A stretch of DNA of 64,000 nt, from assembly GCA_951406725.2 (NCBI GenBank), contig OX597815.1, forward strand, positions 41,974,001 to 42,038,000, given 5' to 3'. Source of the stretch: Octopus vulgaris (lineage: Eukaryota). Below the pieces are notes generated by a model. The model searched no databases, was not told the origin of the DNA, and was given only the letters and a program-made list of their open reading frames with translations. Shown here in pieces: positions 34,655-62,640 of this stretch. The position numbers and the translations under genes were made by a program. Numbering within the stretch: the stretch's first letter is position 1; each line of letters starts with the position of its first letter.

Positions 34655-34896
34655 CTTAATTCATCTATTTTGGCTATTAGCCCAAAATACTGTGTATATC
34701 GACTTAGTTCATCAACTTGACTTGTGATCTGGGAAAGCTCCTCAAAGAGAGGTTCCATCAGCTTTGTGTGCTTCTCAATCTCATCATGCAACGATATTTC
34801 TTCACTGCAGAATGACTTCACCCGAGATTGTGCAGCTTCAGCATTACTAATAGCTTTCTTGATCTCACTTGGGACTTCAGTACTGGCCAACGATAG
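34655..34896 (-). CDS. RINT1: RINT1 coding exon 2 (LSLASTEVPSEIKK...IAKIDEL)
   Basis: Acceptor ttttcttcag, donor AG|GTAT; 242 nt, phase 0 to 2; coiled-coil-like N-terminal region; overlaps ORF 34606..34890. Confidence 0.9.
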
Positions 34897-35256
34897 CTGA
34901 AGAAAATAAACAAAAAAAGATCAAATAAGTTTCTGAAGAAGGCAAAAGAAATGCTGATTTTTCTTTAAGTACATGTTTTTATTGTGATTTTTTTAACTGA
35001 GGAATATCAGATAAGTTCTAGACAATGTACAAAAGTTGATAAAACTAACTAAAACCCAGTAAAATGATAATAATAATAATATTCCTTTGTACTCTAGGCA
35101 CAAGGCCTGAAATTTTGGGGGAGAGGGCTAGTTATTTCACTGGTACTTATTTAATCGACCCCGAAAGGATGAAGGGCAAAGCTGACCTAGGTAGAACTTG
35201 AACACAGAATGTGAAGACAGATGAAGTGCCGCTAAGAATTTTGCCAACTTGCCACC

Positions 35257-35288
<32 letters not shown>

Positions 35289-37318
35289 CCTTTCTGCTAT
35301 AGGTACAAGGCCTGAATTTTGAGGGCGGGAGATATTCGATTACACTGACCCCAGTACACAACTGGTACTTAATTTATTGACCCCAAAAGATGAAAAGCAA
35401 AATCGACATCGGCAGAATAAAAATAATAATAATAATAATAATAACAATTTCAAATTTTTTTCCACAAGGGCAGCTTGGAATAGTGCATAACTGATATTTT
35501 TTTTTAATTGACTCCAAAAGGATGAAAGTCAAAGTCGACTTCAGCAGAATAATACTAATAATAATAATACATAAAGCATTTCAGTACAGTGAAAATAGTA
35601 CCAAACCAAACCAAACCAAACTACAGCACATACCCAAGGCACATAGAGCTGCACTCAGTAGTGCGTAGTGCAGTGAAAGCATGTAATAAAAATAAGACTA
35701 CTGAATAATGATAATAATATTATTGTAGCAAACTGGCCCAAAAGCACTTAGCAGAGGAGGCACGACTATGTGGCGAAGTTTGTTCACTGGAGACTATGTG
35801 AAAAAAAAGTACAGTCTTGGAAGAGCATGAAAATGGTACAGGTATACCAAATAAAGTTTTGGAACAAAATTGGTTTGGTCAAAACAAAATTAAACCTCAC
35901 TCACAATATAAAGAAAAAACTCAAATATCTGCGATAAGGCCAAGTATAAGGCAATGGGAGAAAGAAAATAGAAACAAAAAAGATGTTTAAAGAATATAAT
36001 AATGAATGGGCCTTATGTAACTAACAACAGTCTATTAATTTGAAACACCCAACTTTTATACTTCCTTTTGCTTGATACCTCAATACTTTTTGAATAACGA
36101 AATAAAAATTAATTAATTTTTTTATGTTTAAATTTTTAAAAACAAATTTTATATCCATTTTACCATTACATATTTTGAGTCTTAATTTGTTTTTCCCATT
36201 TGATGACAAAATTTCTTTAATCCTTTAGTATTTAAACCGGGCCATATCCAATTCAAGTATTCTGTTTTCTGTTAAAACTAGCCAAATCTAGACACTCACA
36301 ACTACACTACAATGTCATTCTAAAAGTAAGTAATCGCATCATAAAAATTTTGAAGCTATAAAACAATAAATGATTAATTCTAAACAATGTGAATAATTAA
36401 GCATTTCTGGTCTGATGATCACTTTTTAAATGATCAGAGCACCTTACGAAATTCATTAATCTTTTAGCATTCAATGTCCCTCTGTCAGAAATGTAATGCT
36501 TATTAATCCTGCATTATCTCATAGCTTTGAAATTTCATTGATATGATTGCCAGTGGCACGTAAAAGCACCCACTACACTCTCGGAGTGGTTGGCGTTAGG
36601 AAGGGCATCCAGCTGTAGAGACTCTGCCAGATCAAGATTGAAGCCTGGTGCAGCCATCTGGTTCGCCAGCCCTCAGTCATTCGTCCTACCCATGCTAGCA
36701 TGGAAAGCAGACGTTAAACAATGATGATGAATGATGAATGCTAAAGGGTTAATGAAAATATCTAACTTAATGATTTAGATATCTACAGCTTACTTTTCAA
36801 TCTCGATAGTGTAGTTGGTAAGTTTGTTGAAGAGGTAGAGAGAGAAAAAAAAATAAGAAACACACTGAGACAAGCAGAATAACAGGTTATGTGTAAAAAC
36901 ACCTGTAGTCACAAACAGTTAATTTAGTAATTTCCTGCAAACAACCTCAGGCCCAACATCATTTTTCTCAAACAAAATATTTTCCTTATCTTAACGCTAC
37001 ACAATATTGTGTTGCAGGAATTTTTTCAGTTTTAGAGCTACACTGGATATCAAAAAAATTAGATCACTGGGAAAGTAACAGATGGTGTTCCACCTATTAA
37101 GCAATAGTGCAAAAACTTCTTCATTGTTACTTGATAATTGCAAGAAGTAGTAGACAAATTTCCCTCATATCACACCCTGTGGTCATAAAAACGGGAAGGA
37201 CACATTAGATAGTGTAGTATTGGATATATAAAATCAGCGTGTCAAAATTGGAATGTCTTTGATAACAGGTTTGCTTGATCAGAGCCAACTTGGGCCAAAA
37301 CAACAACTATGGATAACA

Positions 37319-38305
37319 TCTATATAATAATCTGTTTGTTCGTTCACCCATTATACTTTAGTTAGAGTTGGAGGTGGAGAAAAACTATATGAGAAAGAGA
37401 GGTAAGGAGTGTGAGGAGAGAAGAATGAAGTGAGGAAGAAGTAGAGAAATAGGTATAATAAAGCCAAATGCGACAGGTGGTTAATTGAAGGGAGAAGCGA
37501 AGAGCAAGAGAAGAGACAGTGAGAGAAAAGAAGGAGAGAGAAGTGTTAACGGTGTGCTGTAGGGTGGGGAGGGAAAGGTAAAGAGATATGTTTAGGATAC
37601 AATATTTAGCAGAGGGCAATGTTCTGGTGGTGAGGTTAAAGAAAGGTGGATAAGGTGATGGGCAGGAGAGGCGGTTACATTGAGAGAGAGTTAGTAGATG
37701 TGAGAGGTGAAGAGAAAGAGAGAAATGTTTAAAACATGAAGATGGGAATTACATGGTTAAAAAGTTTGTTGAAGACATAGAGAGAAAGAGAGAAACCTTA
37801 AGAGCTTAGAAGGAAATTTTAAAATATATTATTGTGACTGGAAGTGAAATACTTGGCAAAGTAAAAATGCAGATAATTTCTTTCTTAAATAGCTTCTAAT
37901 CTTTTTCGTTCTGTGGAATTTTCACGGACTTGCTAGTCTTCGCCTTCGACTTGTTCGTTCGTTCGTTCACACGTTACGCTTTAGTTTGTGAGAGGAGTGG
38001 AGTGAGAGGAGAGAGAATGAGGGAGGGGGAGTGAGTGAGACAGCAGATGGTCAACCGATGCAGTACGCTTTTAGTGGAAGTGAGAGTGAACAGCCACGAA
38101 GAAGGGAATTACATGGTTTAAAAGTTTGTTGAAGAGAAAGAGAGACACTAAGTCTTTAGCAGAGGGATATTTTAAAATCATATACTATATTATCGTGACT
38201 GTAGGTGAAATAACTTAGTAAAATAAAAATTAAAATCATCCTTTCTTCCTTAAATAGCTTCGCTTAATTTTTTTCGTTCCGTGGAATTTCCACGGGTCCC
38301 GCTAG
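37319..38305 (+). mobile_element. Two tandem non-autonomous Helitron units (37319-37936 and 37937-38305)
   Basis: A|TCTATATAATAA start; each unit ends with a CCGTGGAATTTCCACGG-type hairpin and CTAG|T; the units share 5' and 3' blocks around purine-rich middles. Confidence 0.85.
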
Positions 38306-38571
38306 TATTAATAAGATTCTGCGTGTCATGACATGTGTTCGAATGTTACGTCATGTTTTTGAAGGGAAATAACCCAGTTCAAACTATTATAGTTAGGCAG
38401 AATGTAAAACACAAAATAAGGGATTCATTCTAGTTTGTCTTTTAACTTTTTACATTTCTGAAAATTTTTTTGCTCTAAAAATTTCATTCACGTCTACACT
38501 GTCTTTTCATAGCTATGTATATTTTTGCATTGCAAACATCGTTCTCAGTTACCATGTAAACACCCTTCACT

Positions 38572-39135
38572 ATGGAACGAAATCGAAAACTTGCAGCAAC
38601 AAGAGAACGGATGAGACGGTACAGGCAAAGGATTAAAGACGAACAAAGAGAAGATGTAAAAGAAAGGATGAGACGAAATCAACGGATAAGACGAGCCAAC
38701 ATGAGTGAGCTTGATCGTGCCAAGTACCTACAGTATCAAAGAGAACGTCAACAAATACGAAGAGCAAAAATGAGCGATGAACAGCGAGCTGTCTATCTAC
38801 GAAAACAACGAGAGAGAGGGCAAGCGCGACGAAAGAACATGAGCGAAAAACAACAGACAGAATATAAGGAAAGACACAGAGAAAGGAATCGAATACGACG
38901 AGAAAACATGACCGAAGAACAGTTGATCAATTTAAGAAACGATCAAAGAATAAGACAACGCCAGAAACGATCTGGTGCTCGTGTGATACGGCAACAGAAT
39001 GAACAAATTACAACTGAATCCGACAGTATCGGAGAAACGGACAGATCAAGTTCTGATTGTGATTCTTTGAGAATCAGAAATGAGCCTCCAAACAGTTGTC
39101 ATAACGGTAAAGTTCGACTTCTTTCTCTTGGTTAA
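38572..39135 (+). CDS. Intact 187-aa ORF of five 23-aa STPR-like repeats, resembling a Helitron Rep/Hel N-terminus; antisense within RINT1 intron 1
   Basis: 23-aa period (RRANMSELDRAKYLQYQRERQQI / RRAKMSDEQRAVYLRKQRERGQA / RRKNMSEKQQTEYKERHRERNRI / RRENMTEEQLINLRNDQRIRQRQ); C-terminal EPPNSCHNGKVRL resembles the Helitron CCxxGKVxL motif; Kozak actATGG. Confidence 0.6.
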   Translation: MERNRKLAATRERMRRYRQRIKDEQREDVKERMRRNQRIRRANMSELDRAKYLQYQRERQQIRRAKMSDEQRAVYLRKQRERGQARRKNMSEKQQTEYKERHRERNRIRRENMTEEQLINLRNDQRIRQRQKRSGARVIRQQNEQITTESDSIGETDRSSSDCDSLRIRNEPPNSCHNGKVRLLSLG

Positions 39136-40189
39136 ATTTACATCTGCTGAGTTATTAATATCAATATTGTTATGGATTCTATATGTCATAAAAATCCCAA
39201 TTTTGCAATAATTTCAGTCCGTTGTCTAGCTCATTCTCAAAAATATTTAACATAAACAATCATACTTTTTACTGAAGTTGAGCTGGGGTAAGTACTTTCA
39301 GCGCATGCGCACTCCCGACCTAACCAATCTGATCGCGAAGTATTTGCTTTAGGAATTTTGACATATACATAGGCATAACCAAGATTTGAACTTGGGGTTA
39401 ATTCTCAATTTTAAAATGGACCAATTATTAGCCATCTAATTTAAGAAAAAATTAAAATGAACGTGAGGCAATCATTACATTTGCATGAAACTGCAGGGAA
39501 GTTCACCTAAACCTGTCACAAACCTTCCCGCTTGGCTAGGAGAGTAGTGTGGGACAACCGATAATTGATACAGGTAAATTTAACATCGAAATGTGAATAA
39601 GAGAATCGAAAAAACATGGATCTTGCACGAGTTCTGCAATCTTGTGAAACCCTTGTTTGTGGGTTTTTTTCTTTTAGCCTTAGGTCAGCTATGATTAAGG
39701 TATCTCTAATTGAAAGGGTTCAAGCACTGACCTTGCAGTCCTTCCACCACCGCCTCCCCCCAGCTCAAAATAAATACTAAGCAATTTTTAAGATGATAGA
39801 GCAAGGTTTGAAGCAAATTTTCAGATCAAGCGATCACGTTATAAAGAATCTAATCAAAGACGGTGTACTTTTCAGAGCTAAAACTTCGGTTGATAAATAA
39901 TGCTCAACATTGCTTAAATACCTCACATTATAGCACTGCAGTTGTACCACAGTTCGTTCTCCTTTATATCCAACCATGTACAATAAGTACCAGTCATACA
40001 CCACAAGTGATTCAATCAACTCTTATTCATTTCCCAGTAAAATTGTTCAAGGCCGAAAATATAAGAAATCGGCACCACACTACTACATACAACTTGCATG
40101 ACACGCAATATTTGTTTCACCTGTCTCATTTCTGTGTTGAACTCTCCATAGGGTCAACTATCTTTCATTTTACCAGCACTAGGCATGTG

Positions 40190-40560
40190 TGAAGGTGCAA
40201 TGGCCCAGTGGTTAGGTCATAGGATCGCGGTTTCGATTCCCAGACCGGGCGTTGTGAGTGTTTATTGAGCGAAAACACCTAAAGCTCCACGAGGCTCCGG
40301 CAGGGATGGTGGTGATCCCTGCTGTACTCTTTCACCACAACTTTCTCTCACTCTTACTTCCTGTTTCTGTTGTACCTGTATTTCAAAGGGCCGGCCTTGT
40401 CACTCTCTGTGTCACGCTGAATATCCCCGAGAACTACGTTAAGGGTACACGTGTCAGTGGAGTGCTCAGCCACGTACACGTTAATTTCACGAGCAGGCTG
40501 TTCCGTTGATTCGGATCAACCGGAACCCTCGTCGTCATAACCGACGGAGTGCTTCCATCC
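40190..40560 (+). mobile_element. Near full-length tRNA-derived SINE, CpG intact
   Basis: TGGCCCAGTGG A box, TTCGATTCC B box; imperfect TSD CAC(T/G)AGGCATGT. Confidence 0.85.
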
Positions 40561-41202
40561 ACGAGGCATGTCTTGGTGTCGAGTCATTCATATTTTTGTT
40601 TAGTCTCAAAGTCAACTCTGATCAAGCAGACATGTAGTCAAAGAGCCTTAAGCCAACAGGTTTTGGGATCTGATCGCCATAAAGCTCAGCCATTTATGGA
40701 CGTGAAACCTAAGATAATCCCATAAACCGGTCATGTTTTGCAATTCGTTTTTCTCGGGTCATAGGTCAACAGCAGCACAATGGGGTGAGAGGTTGGGGCT
40801 GAGGGGAGGCCACATGCTGCTAAAAACTAAGACACACACATAAGGATACACATCTTAGAAGAAGAACAGAATGGAGTAAGTGGAGCAAGAAAACACGGAA
40901 CGAAATATGTCGCTGAAGAGGTCACAGATGTGTGACGAAAGATTTCCGGACAATGGACAGGCATTAAAATTATTACAACAGTAATAAACGAGTGAAGAAA
41001 AGAAAAAATATATAGTGCGTGTGATTATTTGGCAATAAATAAATAAAATGACCATCCCGAAATACAACATATATACACAATCACACACACCAGAGTAAGC
41101 ACATAAATTGTGAAACACGGTGATAAAAAATAGTACTCGAATACCACAGGTAGAGTAATATGCTTTATTATTAAAGCTGCAAAAATATCACACACAAAAA
41201 AA

Positions 41203-41242
41203 ACTGCTACTCAGAGTTTTACGTTCCCGTTCGTCGGGCAGT
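41203..41242 (-). ncRNA. Minimal hammerhead-like motif (paralog of 52572-52609; G12A, probably inactive)
   Basis: ACTGC-CCGACGA-ACG GGAA CGT-AAAA-CTCTGAG-TA-GCAGT; stem I covaries with the 52572 copy. Confidence 0.5.
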
Positions 41243-42372
41243 CGTGATCCACATACACACATATCTATATATGTCCCGTCATAGAATGACCAATGGTTTC
41301 GCATTCATAAAGGGCTTAGTCTCTTGGACGACTCGTTAGATTCTACAGCCGAAGGCCATATAGTTCTTCAAGAATATCAAATATAAATATTCTCAGCCAA
41401 GAGTACGTATGAAATATTGCCATGCTCGAATGATAGCCTTTCATATAGATGGAGATGATAAATTGAACACCGGCTCAATACGGGGACAAATTCAATTGCT
41501 TTTATTCCTAAACGTAAACGTTTTAGCCTTGTGGTAAAATGTATATTACTAGCTGAAAGTGATGGATATGACCAAGTGACTGAGATGTTATTATGTTAAA
41601 CGTTTTGTCTTATTTAATCTAGTCCACCTCCTTTCTAGATTCAAAATTGTTTTTGAGTAGAATTTTTCTTCCATCCATGTTTCGATCAAGAACACTTAGC
41701 GATTCTCATCATAGATAGAGATTAGTTTCTGAAATGTGTGCGTGCGTGTTTCTTTTGAAGGTGAAAATAGCATTAGGAAACATCGAGATCGTTCAAATTT
41801 AACGATAAATCACTGAAAGGGGAAAAAAGCAGAAAAACAAACTGGCATTGTGTTTGGAGATAATTATTAGATGTGCAGTGGAGTGATAGAAACGATAGAG
41901 CCCTGAACATAAAGCCTAACAATATTCAGTATCATTCCTCAACACTTTGAATTAAAATCTTCGAGTTCGCTTTTCATTCATCAAGGGTTAGTAAATTACT
42001 AGAGAAGAGCTGAGAATATTTAAGTCATTTATAAACTTTCCTTGTATATTTGTAGTCCTCATTAATACACAAACCCTTTTACTATCAATGAATCTTTCGA
42101 CTTTTACAAATGCCATGTGGAATTGTGTAAACAACGGAAATTTGTAAAAAGAAGGAGAGAGAAAAGGATTCAGAATGATGCTATAACAGATTCATACCAA
42201 TAAAAAAACGGCCGTTTATTCGTCTTTTCACCTGCTCTATTTGGCGGTGGTGAGGAAGACGAAAACCCCACCAAATGAGCCTATTTAACAAATCTTGAAA
42301 GTGTATGAAAAAAACAAACAAACGAACGTATATAAATATAAGAATAACCTTGAGAAAAATTTTTACGTGGCA

Positions 42373-42855
42373 ATTAACGGTGGAATTCTGGTTTAAGCAA
42401 CCCATATAACCCCACATAACTTTGGTTAACTATTTAAATTTTTTTTTTGCGAATTTGTGTTACACACGGAAATTCATACGATTATGCAAAAAAGCAAAAA
42501 AAAAGAAATTGCGTGATTTAAGGGTTATTTAGCCGTTATTTTTAGCACATCTCACGACCACCTGATACCCCCCTACTCGTTTGTCACTGACGTATTGATG
42601 TTTTTCAATATCTTTCTCCCCGTACACATTTAATTGTCTATTGCTGCTATTTAAGCAAAAATTTCGGACTGTCCGTATAAGCGATTTTTTAAAAAAAATT
42701 CGAAAAATTAAAAAACAAATTTTTTTTTTCATAGTCGTATGAATTCCCGTGTGTAGAATGCAAATACGCAAAAAAATGTTTCTGAAAATTCTAAAAAATA
42801 AAAAAAGTTACGAAGGGTTATATGGGGTACTTAAAGTAGAATTCCGCCCAATTAA
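42373..42855. mobile_element. MITE-like element with ~140-bp imperfect terminal inverted repeats
   Basis: GGAATTCT..TTTAAG..CCCATATAACCC..TAACTT..ACACACGGAAATTCATACGA versus its reverse complement at 42700-42855; TTAA near both ends. Confidence 0.7.
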
Positions 42856-43116
42856 CAAATTTGCTGAATGTCAATATTATGGGTACATTATGTACATGTC
42901 AATATGGCTTAGTGAGTCACCCACTGATGGATACTCGTCATAGGTGAATACACACAAACATATATGTGCAGGTGTGTGTATACAAACACTTAGTTAATTT
43001 ATTGTTCATTTTGTGATGTTGCATGCATTAAATATGGAAAGACAAACTTAACAGAGACAGTACACGCACACACAAAATTCACTAAGCTGTTTAACTACAA
43101 TAAAGGACTTCTTTAC

Positions 43117-43263
43117 CTTATTTTCAAGATCCTCTTTTAAGCAACAGAGATTCTTGTAGATATTTTCAACATTCCGCAGCGATCTAATATCGTCGCCAAA
43201 TTCTCTATTAAGGAAATCGATCGTGTTATTATCCACGTCGTCCTCTTCGCTGGGGGCCGCCAT
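43117..43263 (-). CDS. RINT1: RINT1 coding exon 1 (MAAPSEEDD...KEDLENK, 49 codons)
   Basis: AAAATGG start context; donor AAG|GTAAAG; ends phase 0 and joins exon 2 in frame; CpG-rich surroundings. Confidence 0.85.
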
Positions 43264-43460
43264 TTTTATATATATATTTATATATATAGTAGATAGCCGC
43301 ACATGAGTGAGTGAGTGTGAGGTAAAAATGAAAGAGATTGTAGCAGTTGTGATATATATTATGTAGACGTGCAAAAATAGATGAAGGCAGGACAAAAATT
43401 AATGTTCTTCAAGGGAGATAACTTGGAATTAAAGTCTACGTCACTTTTGACAATATGGTC
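43264..43460 (-). promoter_or_regulatory. Probable RINT1 5'UTR and core promoter
   Basis: YY1-like AAAATGGCG overlaps the ATG; CRE-like TGACGTA at 43437-43443; AAGGGAGATAACT at 43411-43423 (+ strand); locally CpG-retaining. The TSS cannot be determined from sequence. Confidence 0.5.
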
Positions 43461-46089
43461 CTTTTTCTGTAGTAATGCCCTCCTCCTTTTTTTTTTATAC
43501 GTGTGCTGTACACAATATTATGAACTGTTCCATTTGTTATAAGACTTCCTATACATGCACTGCTTTTCACTTTGAAATGTAAACATGAAGCTTTATTGTC
43601 AACAGGGTTCCAAAGTTCTTAACTCGTGTCTTTATATATGTGCACATATATATATATATATTTATATATATATTTATCCATAGCCGTACTTTCGTAAAAT
43701 GGAAATTATTGTGCGGTACCATTACATATATCTCTTTTGTTGACATATTTTACTTTAGCGAGCATTTCCACATAGATATTTTGAAATAAACGCTTATAAA
43801 ACGACAGACTATGAAAAAAATGTGTCGCTGTTAGGTTGATTCGAGTAAAAATTTCAAATAAATAAAAAGAACAGACGATAAAAGTTATTGTTTAAAACTG
43901 AATTACCTCACTATATCTAAAATAAGATTTAGCATTCCAGAGTGCAGTTAAGACATTCAAGCTTAATAAGTAATATAGTGAGTTGAGAAAATTTTTCAAA
44001 CAGGCCATGTCTGGCCCAAATATTGTTCCTGTTTTATGTTCAAACTAGTCAGATCTTGCCTTTCACACTTAACCTACAATGTCATTCTAAAAATATACAA
44101 TAACATAGTTCTATATTTAAGAGATGTGGAATTATGTACATTATTTACAGGATGAGGACAAATATCCGTCAATTGTAAATAATATAAATAATATACAATA
44201 ACATCATCGAAATCTCCAAGCTAAGGGAATAGGCATGATTAATTAAAATAATGTAAATAAACAGGCATTACATCCGACAGGGTAATCTGAATACGGAAGG
44301 GTCAACTGATTATCTCTACAGTGAATAAAACGCTTCAAATATAAAAAAAACAAAACGAAGTATGATTCTTATAATATTAGCTAAGCATATTTTCAGAAAA
44401 TAAATTTCATACAGATGGGAATGGATCTTCTCTTTAAAGTCAACTGTTGAAAGCAACAGACATGTTTTGATCTTATTAGAGCTCTTCAGCTCAGTTGACA
44501 ATATTTAGATGTGATTAATATACATAGAAAATTTGATAGAATGTGGTTATGCTTTAAAGCCAAGATCTACTCCCGTCTACAAAACGGGATTGTTTAGTAG
44601 ATGATGCTGTTTCTCATCTAATCCTGGCTCAATTAGATGCATACACCCAACTTAGGGTTTGAAACTTGAGAAATGAGAAAGTAAAAGCCAGAATCTTTCT
44701 TGTTTCTTTGATGACTTATGACCATTCAATGACCCACACACAACTGGGACTTCTTTATATCAACGAAATTGTGAATGGTTTCTTTGAAATTATACAGCAA
44801 GAGTAGTATATTTCAGACATGCAAATGTCAAATTATTATATTTCTCTCGTTTTTCCTCTTTGTAAATGAAACCACCTTTTCGGCATCCACTTTATAAGAC
44901 AGTAATACATATTGGAATAGTGCAACTGTCAAAAGATTTGTAGGCCTCTAAACTTTACATTCATTTATTTATTTATTTATTTTTGAAGAGTTTAAGATAG
45001 AAGGGGCTGTGCCTTGGACTTTTGCAGGCCCTTCAAAACTGGTGAGGTTGATGAAGATGAAGTTCACCTTAAGCATCTGTGAATCAAAAACTGAAAGGAA
45101 AATGTGGGCAAGAAAGGAATTCCAGAGGACTGATATTATGGGAAGGAAGAAGGCAGTGAGCTGGCAGAATCATTAGCATGCTGGGCAAAATGCTTAGCAG
45201 CATTTCATCTGCCTTTACATTCTGAGTTCAAATTCTGCTGAGGTTGATTTTTGCCTTTTATCCTCTCGGAGTTGATAAAATAAGTACCAGTTGAACACCA
45301 GGGTTAATATAATTGACTTCTTCCCTCTCCCAAACTTGCCGGCCTTGTGCCAAAGTTTGAAACCCATATTATGATAAGGGAGGGTTTAGCGTAGTGTTCA
45401 CTTGTAAAACTTAATTTCATTTATCTTAGTACTGAAGAAAGCCTTTTAACAGTCATTAGATTCTTATACATGAAGAGATTTTTTCGCCTTTACCTTTCTA
45501 TGCATACAAATGTTTGTTCACTTGGTGTATGCATAAAAATATTTATATCCAAATATACATACACCCTCCACACACACACACACACACACACCAGTATGGA
45601 CATATATATGTATACACATTTATATATCCATATATATCTTGAGAAGACCCATCAAGCCAAGTGAAATCACAGTTGTGGCTAATGCCAGTGTCACGTAACT
45701 GACACTTGTGCTGGTGGCATGTAAAAAGCACCCTTTGCTCATTGGGTGATATGCTGTGCTTGAGAAGACCTGTCAAGCCAAGTGAGATTGTAGTTGTTGC
45801 CGATGCTGGTGGTTTGCAACTGGCACTCATGCTGGTGGAACATGAAAAGCACCCACTGCACTCTTGGAATGTTTGGCACTAGGAAGGGCATCCAGCTGTA
45901 GAAACCATGCCAAATTAGATTAGAATCCTGGTGCAGCTCCCCATCTTACCAGTTTTCAGTCAAACCATCCAACCCATGCCAGCATGGAAAACGGATACTA
46001 AATGATGATGATGATGATATATATATGTAGAATGTTGGAAAGCGACACATGAGTTGATATGTATAAGGAAAATATGGTTAGTACTGGTT

Positions 46090-57493: not shown

Positions 57494-60400
57494 GTAAGAA
57501 AATATAATTTGTAACCTTGCTATAGTGATTACGTTTTCATTTGTTGTTGTTTTAACCGAATAACTGTTGCGCGAAATGGTCATAAGTGTCTTTTACTTAA
57601 AGAGATAGAATTTCATTCTTTTTCCTTCGTTTTACGTTTCTTAGATGTCCTCTTGAAATTTTTACGACTAGCCAACTCCATTTATCTATTTTACTTTACA
57701 CTTTAAATTCATGTCCGATTAATACATCTACCTGTGCTTATATATATTTACAACGCTTATCTGATTCAAGTGTAGTTATTGTTATTGTAGCATCACTTTT
57801 GTGGCAAGACTTGCGTCTGGAATATAAATATATACAATGTTTAAATGTCCTGTTTCTTTGGCTTGCACACTATTGAATTATGACAAATACAAAATCTGTT
57901 CATCAGGTAACAAATTGAAATTATAACAGACAAAATAACCTAAATAACATAAACCATTTTGCTCTATTATTGAATAATAAAATTAGTAATTGATATCTAT
58001 AACATCAGTGGTAATGATTTGTAAATAATATGCACGATTTCTAGTTAGTGTCTACTCACAAGTGTTAGGATACAATCATATCTAAGTACTTAACGGGTTA
58101 AATGTCTGTTCGAGGGCATATCGTTATTCATTTCTACCACCTGAAAGATTGCCCACACCTACAAAAACTGGATGATTAATTGACAATACATGTCTTTCTG
58201 ATGCTTGTTTAGTGACTCAACTTCAACACACCAATATAAAATGTACAATTTTTCAGATACAAGAAAGTCTGGATACATACACATACAAAAAAAAAACTTT
58301 CGTTATTCATTGAAAGAGATGCCTTATCAGTTTTTTTTTCTTCTTTCAATTACGTTGTTTTTAATTGTTGAGGGCCGTTTGATTTCCTCAAAATCAAACC
58401 ATTTTCAGATAATAGTTTTATCAATTGAAAGGAATATAAAGTATATATGGGGGAGAAAAAAATTCACCCAAAAGCTGCGTATTTAAAATAAATATATTTT
58501 GTATAATTTTTGTTAAGTTTTTTTACAATTCTACCTGTCTGACTTTCACTGTAGTATAATAGTGATTTCTGGCAGTTTTCATGGAAAAATTCACTGAGAA
58601 GATTAAAATTCACAAGAAATATATAAATTTTACTTCCCAAACCAGCCTGGTGTTCATAGTAAAAATTTACCCAATTTTTTAATTCATATAAACTCTTCAA
58701 ATGTTTATATTTTGTTGTTAAACAATAATATTACTTCCTTGGTGAACCTCATGGATATCTATCTATTCTACCAATATTTCTTTATTATAACTTTTTGAAT
58801 TTAAATTCCCTCGGTGGTGTAAATTTAGTACAGTTATATATGCATTTGCTATACAAGTCAATTTTGAAACTTAAGACGAACTGCCCCACTGAGAAACAAT
58901 AATGGTGTCTTTACTGACAAATATCAGTCCCAACTCCACTAATTATTAATGGGAAAATAAAGTTTTCATCCACTTTACCCTGCTTTCTTCGCCAACGAGT
59001 TATGATGGTTTTTAAAAAAATGGTTAATGTTTAACCTAAAGAACGATCATAACTTTATTAAACATGGCAATTTGTATGCTCCCCCTTGAATATTCATAAA
59101 CCGCGCATATTAAAAAAACAAAAAACACTGCCTTCATTCTTGAACCGATATTCAATTCTTTAATCAGCAAAGTGCCCCCCCCCCTCAAGAGAAGGCTGGG
59201 GGTACGGAGAAACTAAAAACCAAACAAAAAAAAACGGTCAGTACCCTCTGTTTGCACTTCTCGTCATGGCACACGTACTTAGGAATTTCTTTTCCTTTTT
59301 GTAACCGTTTCATCAGTACACATTTTTCAAGTAACGAAGATTTACTATAAAATGTTATGATGGCTTTGCTTGTCTTGCTGTTTTATGATTCTGTTCACTA
59401 CGGGGCGCAAATATTGTTGGGTGGTAAGAAACGTGCTTCCCAACCACGTGGTTTCGGGTTCAGTCTCTCTGCGGGGCACCATGAACAAATGTCTTCCACT
59501 ATAGTCCCGGGCCGACCAAAGCTTTGTCAATGGATTTGGTAGACGGAAACTGAAAGAAGCCCGTCGTTTGTGTGTGTATGTTTGCATTTGTCCCACCTCC
59601 AACCGCTTAACTACTAGTACTGGCTTGTTTCCGTCCCCGTAACATAGCGGTACGGCAATGGGGACCTGTAGAATACCTACAAGGTTTAAATACAAGTACT
59701 GGTGTTGAATTGTTTAATTAAACCCTTTAAGGCGGTGTCCCAGCATGGTCGAAGATAAAATACTTGAAACAAAATAAAAAATTAACCAGGCACAGGTTCT
59801 GGGTTTAATCCTACTGTGGGGCACTTTGGGTAAGTGTCTTCTATAGCTTTGGGTCGACCAATGCCTTGAGTGGATTTGAAACTGAAAGAAGCCCGTTGTG
59901 TGCGTGTCAATGTGTTTGTGTTTTTGTGTTTGTACCCGCCACACCGCTTGACAACCGGTGTGGGTGTGTTTACGTCCCCGTAACTAAGCAGATCGGCAAA
60001 AGAGGCCTATAAAATAAGTATCAGGTTTAAAAACAAATGAGTATTTGGATCGGTTTGTTCGACTAAAATTCAAGGTTGGTGCCCAAGCTCGGCAGCAGTC
60101 TGATGCCGTCAGTTTTAGTTTATCTTAAGGTTGATGCCTCAAGTTGTTTTTAATATATAAGGTCCACACAATTCAAATACAATGGAAATGTACAGACCGA
60201 TACAAAGAGAAAAAAAAAAAAACTATATGGTTTTGGTTTTCGGGAAATTCGCTGAATCAATGACACATATATGATTTATTTTTAGCATGATACTGAGCTA
60301 TAAGTTAAGTTGTTTTCGTATTCAAAGATGAATGTCTTATATAGATAATTCGTCTTTTTCTCAATTTAAGATTTGATTATTTAAAAAAAAATCTTTTCTC

Positions 60401-62574
60401 TCTGCTCACCTATGTATATTATTTTACTCTTTTTAAGTATTTCGCTTAATAATTAGCTGATTTATTGATCTGGCATTGACAAATAGAAGTCTTTGTTAAA
60501 TTTATGAAAGAGAACTTCCTAGCAACTATTGCTTCATATATTTTTTTTATTGAAAATATTTTAAAATGAAAGTACGTTAAGTTTCACAGTTGCAACTTTG
60601 TTATATAGTGACTATACTCAAACTGCAACCACCTCAGCACTGTCATTTAGGTAACATCTACTTCCAAGAAGTCATTTGATCAGTTAATTCTGCTTAAAAT
60701 TAATAATTAGGTTTTTGCTGTATTTGTCTTAATCTTTTAGTTTTAGGCAACCTCTTGTTTTAAATATCTATTTCAATCTCCGATGTAGAACTTTAGGTAA
60801 TATTTGACACTGGGTTTATTTGAGTTCTGTTTCCACCTGTTAGCTGATATTTCTGTTAGGTCTGTTATTAAAATTCTTGAAACGAGATCAAGAACTGTTC
60901 AGTTAGATGAAAATAAAATAAATATCACTTCAGAATACTTCATTAAGGATGAATAAAATTTTAAACTGCTTAGTTACCCTTTAGCATTCAGGTTACTCAT
61001 TCAGATGATAACATTTATTCACATTGTTTTGAATTAATCATGCTTTATCTTGTAGCTTCATGATTTCGATGATGTTGTTTGTTTTTAGAATGACATAAGG
61101 TAGGTATAACAGGCTGGATCTGGTCAATTTGAACATGAAACAAGAATATTTGGGCTGGATATTGCTGGTTTAAATGATAATCTCTCTTTAGCTGCATTAT
61201 AATCTCTCTTTACTCTGTTATCCAACTTAGTTTTACTGTACATCTGCTTTTTTGTGATTATATTACCAATTCCATAATTTGGTTTATGAGCTATTTTCTG
61301 TTTCATTGTTTGCTAGAGTGAAATTCTTAGATAGAGGGTTATTGCCAGATTATAAATCAAATTTTAACTTAAAGATGTTCCTGTCATATTCTGAAATGTT
61401 CTTTTCTACTCTAGGCACAAGGCCCAAAATTTTTGGTGAGGGGATCAGTTGATTAGATCGACCCCAGTACGCAACTGGTACTTAATTTATCAACCCTGAA
61501 AGGATAAAAGGCAAAGTTGACCTCAGCAGAATTTGAACTTAGAACATAGCTACAAGCAAAATACCACTAAGCATTTTGCCCCGCATGCCAATGTTTCTGC
61601 CAGCTTGCTGCCTTACATATTATTCTGAAATATTGATTAGAGAAATTTCTTATGGCAATCTAAAACTCTGAAGCAAATGACATGATCAAGAAATTTTATT
61701 TCCTGAATTGATTCTTTTATCTTATTTTGTTGTTATCATTGTTAGTGTCTGCAATTCTGTCTTTGTAAGGTGTAATTTGAGGGAGACAGTGGATCCTTTG
61801 TTGTTTTTATACATCTGCTGCATCTCAGAGGCTAGGCCTTCTTTTCTTAACCAAACTCTATTTCAGTTCTGAACAGCTGTTTTTGTATTGTATGTTTTCT
61901 CGTATCAGAGTACTGTTCATTTATATAAAGCAATGCTGCTGTACAAATATAATGAAACAAACTAGATCTAAATTAAAAAGAAAAGTCATTCAACTGATTG
62001 GCAAATCTTCAATTAACAAACACATAACCAGTTGCACACTGTGGTGAACTAACAAGTTCTGTATCACCAAATCCACGTTTCATCTTAATTCTATCATCTC
62101 AATTCTGTAGGGACAATAGCATACCTTATTTCCAGAACTCTTTTTTTTTTTTCCTTTCCACATGCTCCATTTAGATAAGTCTGCAGAAATTCAAATTGAT
62201 TATTAACTTGTATTGACTTCCTCCTTGGATTAAAATTTACTTTTAAAAAAATGTCATAAAACATGAATTTTAGCAAGATGTGATTTTATATTCTTGTTGA
62301 ACTGTCATCAAATAATCAATTAAGTAATATTATGAGATAGGACATACTCTTTGGTTAGATATTTAAAAATGAAACAAAGATATTTGGAGGAAACTAGTAA
62401 ATAGCCTGTATCACTAAGAAAGAAAAAGTTTATTAAAGAAGTTCCTTGTCTAAACTATCAGAACCTGTTTCTCATTCTTTGGCAAAGATTTCTGTATGAA
62501 ATCTTTGAATAATATTGATGTAAATATTTATCATAAATACTAACATTTCAATATATTTCTTTACAGTTGAGATT

Positions 62575-62640
62575 ATGTCTGGAATTGCTGTGGGTCGTTT
62601 AGCTGAAGAAAGAAAAGCTTGGAGAAAAGATCATCCTTTT
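62575..62640 (+). CDS. UBE2I: UBC9 / SUMO-conjugating enzyme E2 I, first coding exon ([22 protein letters not shown]); gene continues beyond the window
   Basis: The peptide closely matches the conserved Ubc9 N-terminus. TACTAAC branch point at 62538-62544, acceptor ttctttacag (exon starts 62567), donor TTT|GTAAGC at 62641. Confidence 0.95.

Follow-up and report, generated by a model that had tools for sequence, protein, structure and literature searches.

The window analysed here is a 64,000 nucleotide stretch of the Octopus vulgaris genome, and within it a stop-free ORF of 187 aa (38572–39135, plus strand) lies antisense inside intron 1 of RINT1 (34897–43116). A sequence-only reading had proposed that it is a Helitron N-terminus kept as a stand-alone small nuclear protein. 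The frame in which it lies (191 aa from stop to stop) is indeed the longest of the 135 stop-to-stop frames of at least 70 aa in the window, the runner-up being 173 aa, and the start codon has the A at -3 and the G at +4 of a strong Kozak context, both read from the sequence, as had been claimed. The position of the ORF in RINT1 was also rightly called, since Pfam RINT1_TIP1 matches two later exons on the minus strand and spliced RNA contigs join 34896 to 43117, placing RINT1 exon 1 at 43117–43553 and exon 2 at 34655–34896, both on the minus strand.

The ORF has a period of 23 aa, with a self-identity of 0.37 at lag 23 against 0.04–0.18 at other lags, a value reached by 0 of 10,000 shuffles. 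Five STPR-like repeats, all in the one register that had been reported for them, occupy aa 21–135 (38632–38976, plus strand), as judged from this periodicity, the structure model, and a weak match to the Helraiser N-terminus. Position 1 of the repeat is M in four of the five copies and position 9 is Y in three, in agreement with the earlier description of the E1 and R9 positions as mostly M and Y, while position 2 is S or T in four, R6 is present in three, and R20 in four. In the single-sequence structure model (pTM 0.25) the predicted helices are interrupted by linkers of 2–3 residues, being broken at residues 1–2 of repeats 2–5 and beginning at residue 3 in repeats 2–4, and aa 150–187 are disordered. 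Following the repeats is a linker (38977–39105, plus strand), mostly disordered by prediction, with a remnant of the Helitron CxxC...CC motif in which, by comparison with relatives, two of the four Cys have been lost.

The STPR domain of Bombyx FMBP-1 and ZNF821 (PF21107), as described in the available part of PMC4856987, is similar in its strict 23 aa period, its basic character, the S/T2, R6, and R20 residues, and the predicted 2-residue linker and 21-residue helix, and the helix break of BmSTPR at repeat residues 1–2 is shared by the ORF model. The repeats differ from that domain in that Glu1, Arg9, and Tyr16 of BmSTPR are missing from all five, given a register mapping to BmSTPR that is itself an inference, in that Pfam STPR gives no match on the ORF, and in that the atlas feature score to an STPR cluster is only 0.77. 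The biased composition of the ORF may depress the Pfam score. Foldseek, run with the model of the ORF, returned no matches. The suggestion of STPR-like repeats is supported; on the model, the ORF appears to work like an STPR array though it is not classed as one by Pfam.

By its sequence the ORF is Helitron-derived, as had been proposed. Its relatives share the layout of repeats followed by CxxC...CC-GKV, one of them (L004) extends into Helitron_like_N (E 3.8e-41), and the sole PDB match of the ORF is a weak one to the N-terminus of the Helraiser transposase (E 0.12). STPRs are listed among the domains of HLE1 Helitrons in the available portion of the HELIANO paper (PMC11417382), and the N-terminus of HLE1 RepHel proteins, for example Helraiser (7LCC), likewise has R/E/Q-rich repeats and then CxxC...CC-GKV, with Helitron_like_N following in the relatives. 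Unlike RepHel, the ORF retains the first 178 codons only and has lost two Cys; no Helitron homology is detectable beyond about 39130, with Rep and helicase absent downstream, as the sequence-only reading had stated, and the ORF copy is not an autonomous Helitron, its homology ceasing there.

A search of the 2.8 Gb genome for the family produced 50 matches from 150 scored among at least 245 candidates. The ORF itself proved to be single-copy, its best non-self match being 41% identical, and DNA matches of more than 100 nt are only 66–78% identical, so that the loci scored include no young, near-identical copy. One of the 48 loci examined, L019 (G000:C3:148998466-148998903, minus strand), has a second long open frame of the Helitron family, 234 aa from stop to stop, in which the repeats of one subfamily are followed by a segment that is itself repeated locally and shows an STPR-like E-T...R spacing. 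Its nearest relative is 86% identical, it belongs to another subfamily than the ORF copy, and it could be young or be another captured exon. Decayed copies of the Helitron N-terminus that resemble one another, at least 15 in all, are clustered at G000:C30:18.6-21.1 Mb and C31:1.1-1.3 Mb, probably through segmental duplication.

Other elements are present around the coding exon. Just upstream of it, and distinct from the coding Helitron, is a high-copy non-autonomous Helitron-like element with a terminal hairpin and CTAG (38095–38305, plus strand; 462 candidates, 40 scored, non-self identity 78–88%). A second short Helitron-like copy with a hairpin and CTAG end is nearby at 37735–37936, and the two copies may add to the promoter of the exon. 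A MITE-like inverted-repeat element, with 64 nt arms that are 77% complementary and with nested inner arms, sits at 42379–42848, just within RINT1 intron 1.

None of the 24 listed sequencing runs is recorded as RNA. Six of them were examined, of which four, from four studies (X11, X14, X19, and X20), were taken as RNA because their RINT1 contigs are spliced, and two (X5 and X10) are DNA-like. Contigs showing a plus strand transcript, one of the points on which the earlier proposal depended, are present in all four RNA runs, where the neighbourhood of the ORF is covered only over about 38400–39100. The contigs of X14, X19, and X20, three of the four RNA studies, stop exactly at 39106, just before a GT donor; X11 alone has a contig that reads past the stop codon of the ORF, unspliced (38478–39282), and the contigs of both DNA-like runs continue uninterrupted through 39106. 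Of the two donors that had been suggested, the one at 39107 is therefore used in three of the four RNA runs, and use of the one near 39288 is not seen in the RNA contigs of the four. The tail after 39106 is identical in X14, from organism A, and X20, from organism B, and X19 carries 28 further letters beyond this position. The shared tail matches 62567–62596 at 29 of 30 letters, at one place in the window, directly 3' of an AG acceptor, and an exact search of the genome with it gave no matches because one letter differs. At 62595 the RNA contigs have C and the genome has T, a difference that is synonymous in UBC9 and is probably allelic.

From the contig tails and the sequence, the intron of this fusion transcript is 23,460 nt long (39107–62566, plus strand), has GT-AG ends, and extends across RINT1 exon 1 and the RINT1 5' end. 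Its donor falls within the Helitron's own G-K-V codons and is also found in paralog L026, but not in L013, few copies extending that far, and it comes from the element. The remaining nine codons and stop of the ORF (39107–39135, plus strand), identified from the ORF and the X11 contig, form a read-through tail used only when the donor is skipped. The 5' UTR of the alternative first exon (38398–38571, plus strand) is at least partly Helitron-derived, as paralog homology reaches upstream to 38423–38440 and in one locus to 38328, and its start is not fixed, with RNA contig 5' ends at 38398, 38421, 38422, and 38478. It contains an upstream ORF of 14 codons (38515–38559, plus strand) ending 12 nt 5' of the main ATG, which may reduce translation, and there are other upstream ATGs at 38402 and 38554. 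Contig depth, given as a mean over the whole contig, is 398 in X14 and 5–7 in the other runs. The fusion transcript and RINT1 are arranged head to head and overlap by about 5 kb (38398–43553) in one CpG-rich stretch (38–44 kb of the window), and transcriptional interference between them is possible.

UBC9 is the single SUMO E2, is nearly invariant, and normally reaches its targets through consensus sites or E3 ligases. The tail, together with a PDB match covering the first 22 UBC9 residues (E 3e-9), identifies the exon at 62567–62640 (plus strand) as the first coding exon of UBC9/UBE2I, with its ATG at 62575. Five further coding exons are outside the window at G000:C2:42045381-42053314+, so that UBC9, which is single-copy in the genome, has six coding exons with GT-AG ends and a full UBC core with the catalytic Cys. 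The coding part of the Helitron-derived exon (38572–39106, plus strand), delimited by the ORF, the contigs, and the frame of the junction, comprises 178 codons and 1 nt, and the reading frame stays open over the 39106/62567 junction and on to the UBC9 ATG. The predicted fusion would be 340 aa long, with 178 Helitron residues, 3 linker residues, and the intact 159 aa UBC9. An in-frame splice has a prior of 1 in 3 by chance, and out-of-frame forms would be removed by decay. The X14 contig is 1380 nt long, which equals the full fusion mRNA when the UTR before the ATG is counted as 174 nt, the CDS as 1023 nt, and the 3' UTR as 183 nt up to a CA repeat, a point where an assembly would break. The agreement is one of length, 30 letters of the tail having been read and the remainder inferred. 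The extension has a net charge of +23 and a single consensus SUMO site, K22, which could be there by chance.

To judge from the short overhangs in X19 and X20, the 62567 acceptor may be shared with a different first exon. There is, from the sequence, a candidate donor of the usual non-coding UBC9 first exon at 57494–57499 (plus strand), in a CpG-rich stretch, and the usual form of UBC9 probably continues to be produced from a promoter closer by. In the protein collection, the ORF has no match among candidates of 102–328 aa (838) and of 329–2000 aa (1556), and its exact protein sequence is absent. A search with the UBC9 exon protein gave 746 matches, and the 19 that were examined among the best 120 are all intron-run-through calls or ordinary forms, none with the repeats. 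There is weak evidence, then, that the fusion is unannotated in protein databases.

Third codon positions in the repeats differ at 27/132 sites (20.5%) in the ORF exon and at 390/1867 (20.9%) in its relatives (p=1), which makes the exon as old as these decayed copies. The alignment used was seeded on the ORF copy and drew on 30 loci, 16 of which passed (score of at least 120 and at least 60 codons) and 14 of which were dropped. None of the 16 relatives is intact: over 2010 codons they contain 104 stops along with 105 gaps that shift the frame, some of these gaps being alignment noise. The rates are 9.2 stops per 178 codons and, for indels that shift the frame, about 4.8 in every 535 nt. The 11 CpG-rich relatives, which are a fair comparison because the ORF copy is itself CpG-rich, still carry 8.05 stops for every 178 codons. 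When the majority base of 21 chosen subfamily loci is taken as the reference, the ORF copy differs at 18.7% of sites and the relatives at 20–32%, and simulated neutral change left a stop-free frame in 4 of 10,000 cases at 18.7% divergence (4e-4) and in 1.2% at 10%.

At codon positions 1 and 2 the repeats differ at 41/244 sites (16.8%), compared with 926/3567 (26.0%) in the relatives (p=0.0013), although the pooled sites are not independent and the seeding on the ORF copy applies here too; this signal could date from selection while the element lineage was active. The same positions of the linker are neutral-like (25.4% against 25.8%), and the 5' UTR is diverged at 13/51 sites, as in decayed copies. 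Measured against the family majority, dN/dS is 0.68 (0.53 in the repeats and 1.64 in the linker), where decayed copies span 0.34–1.58. Among related runs, which are very close, X10 has two synonymous changes in the ORF and X5 has one non-synonymous change (S134F), with p=0.22 for ORF against flank, and none of the 4–5 indel events is inside the ORF (P 0.10–0.16). An apparent 4 nt insertion relative to the family majority was rejected as an alignment artefact, being in a GA run where the relatives disagree, with the 69 nt register intact. The lack of stops and the conserved first and second positions of the repeats are signs of constraint, but the dN/dS is uninformative, being within the range of decayed copies; the exonised Helitron N-terminus is probably under selection.

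That the working product is a stand-alone 187 aa repeat protein made by read-through, with the UBC9 splice incidental, is very improbable. The unspliced X11 contig over 38478–39282 and the good second donor at 39288 would suit it, but the X11 contig could derive from pre-mRNA, a message spliced at 39288 would have a premature stop ahead of several exon junctions, and in three of the four RNA runs the transcript ends its use of the ORF at the first donor, nine codons before the stop, the X14 and X20 tails then joining UBC9 in frame, which does not support the stand-alone protein of the sequence-only reading. It is also distinctly unlikely that this is a copy from a longer-active lineage, intact by youth and chance, which is transcribed owing to its place in the unmethylated region at the RINT1 5' end, is joined to whichever strong acceptor comes next, and has no function. 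The 38–44 kb stretch is CpG-rich, the longest ORF was picked and candidates for the family number at least 245, the probability of no stop at 10% divergence is 0.012, L019 is also open, and the donor comes from the element, all of which agree with such an origin. The matches of over 100 nt, at 66–78% identity, include no young relatives, however, and the 5' UTR and third positions have diverged like those of decayed copies, while the relatives have frameshifting indels in addition to stops and the same splice is seen in two organisms.

It is less easy to set aside the suggestion that the Helitron is a second promoter of UBC9 and that selection keeps the frame only for the sake of active UBC9, the extension being a passenger or a nuclear-retention tag, although this too we consider unlikely. 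The lack of any stop is the strongest signal and the amino acid constraint is modest, the repeats lack the signature residues of STPR, two zinc ligands are gone, and the linker is neutral in its evolution yet open, all of which speaks for this suggestion. Loss of the ATG would, on the other hand, have been a simpler route to UBC9 output, and the constraint is limited to the repeats, where the 23 aa register has been retained.

The reading that is favoured, with a probability of about 0.58, is that UBC9 has an alternative first exon formed from the 5' end of an old Helitron and that the repeats of the predicted protein would bind DNA and tether the SUMO enzyme to chromatin. What has been observed is that the exon is expressed and spliced in frame to an intact UBC9 gene, that it comes from a Helitron family, and that it is old yet intact. 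The fusion is likely to be a SUMO-conjugating enzyme tethered to DNA, an alternative UBC9 isoform. Besides the ATG and the donor, the transposon would have given a start site, and translation of the fusion mRNA would yield a protein in which the basic repeats bind DNA and a flexible linker holds UBC9 on chromatin. Given their likeness to BmSTPR, the repeats may occupy the major groove of AT-rich DNA, possibly at Helitron copies. Such tethering could lead to E3-independent SUMOylation of the extension, at K22, and of nearby chromatin proteins, with repression the most likely outcome. Tethered GAL4-UBC9 reportedly represses reporters.

Proteins joined to Ubc9 at its N-terminus can undergo SUMOylation with no need of an E3, according to the available text of PMC2034454, and recruitment of the SUMO machinery to a locus has been linked to transposon silencing in Drosophila in the part available of bioRxiv 10.1101/533091. 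The engineered Ubc9 fusions of the former (UFDS) resemble the predicted fusion in having the partner at the Ubc9 N-terminus via a linker, with E3-independent SUMOylation. Unlike UFDS, the predicted fusion would be natural and would have its own DNA-binding module. To our knowledge, SUMOylation aimed in this way is known so far only from engineered fusions. Whether the Helitron domain goes so far as to make the only SUMO E2 a sequence-guided chromatin writer that silences its transposon family, or genes near the copies, in a role that would be like that of KRAB zinc fingers and KAP1 in tetrapods, is a tentative suggestion and a doubtful one.

This is a probable host-transposase fusion, of a kind for which the donor and partner were not found in the literature searched. 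KRABINER, SETMAR, and CSB-PGBD3, as presented in the available text of Cosby et al. (bioRxiv 10.1101/2020.05.07.082677), are similar in their transposon DNA-binding domain, alternative splicing, element-supplied splice site, and host regulatory partner, and in the parent transcript probably being retained. The UBC9 fusion differs from those cases in that its donor is a Helitron, the words "Helitron" and "SUMO" occurring 0 times in that available text, and in that the element is a 5' exon giving the ATG and donor, where 8/9 of the cases there use an acceptor. Its partner is a core-pathway enzyme rather than KRAB and its host is an invertebrate. Capture of a transposase HTH by a ubiquitin-system gene, likewise in an invertebrate, is described for Caenorhabditis F-box genes in the portion available of PMC12062965, but there a mariner HTH has joined a multicopy E3 adaptor family and protein binding is proposed, whereas the UBC9 case involves a Helitron domain and a single-copy E2. 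No earlier report of a Helitron-UBC9 fusion was found in the literature search, in which subscription papers were thinly covered.

The junction provides a pair of primers and a peptide unique to it, which makes the claim cheap to test, and the fusion offers a direct test of what the STPR-like repeats of Helitrons bind. If the reading is true, transposase capture would come to include Helitrons, an architecture in which the element is the 5' exon, and a partner that is catalytic, and the natural isoform would represent a new way of aiming SUMOylation.
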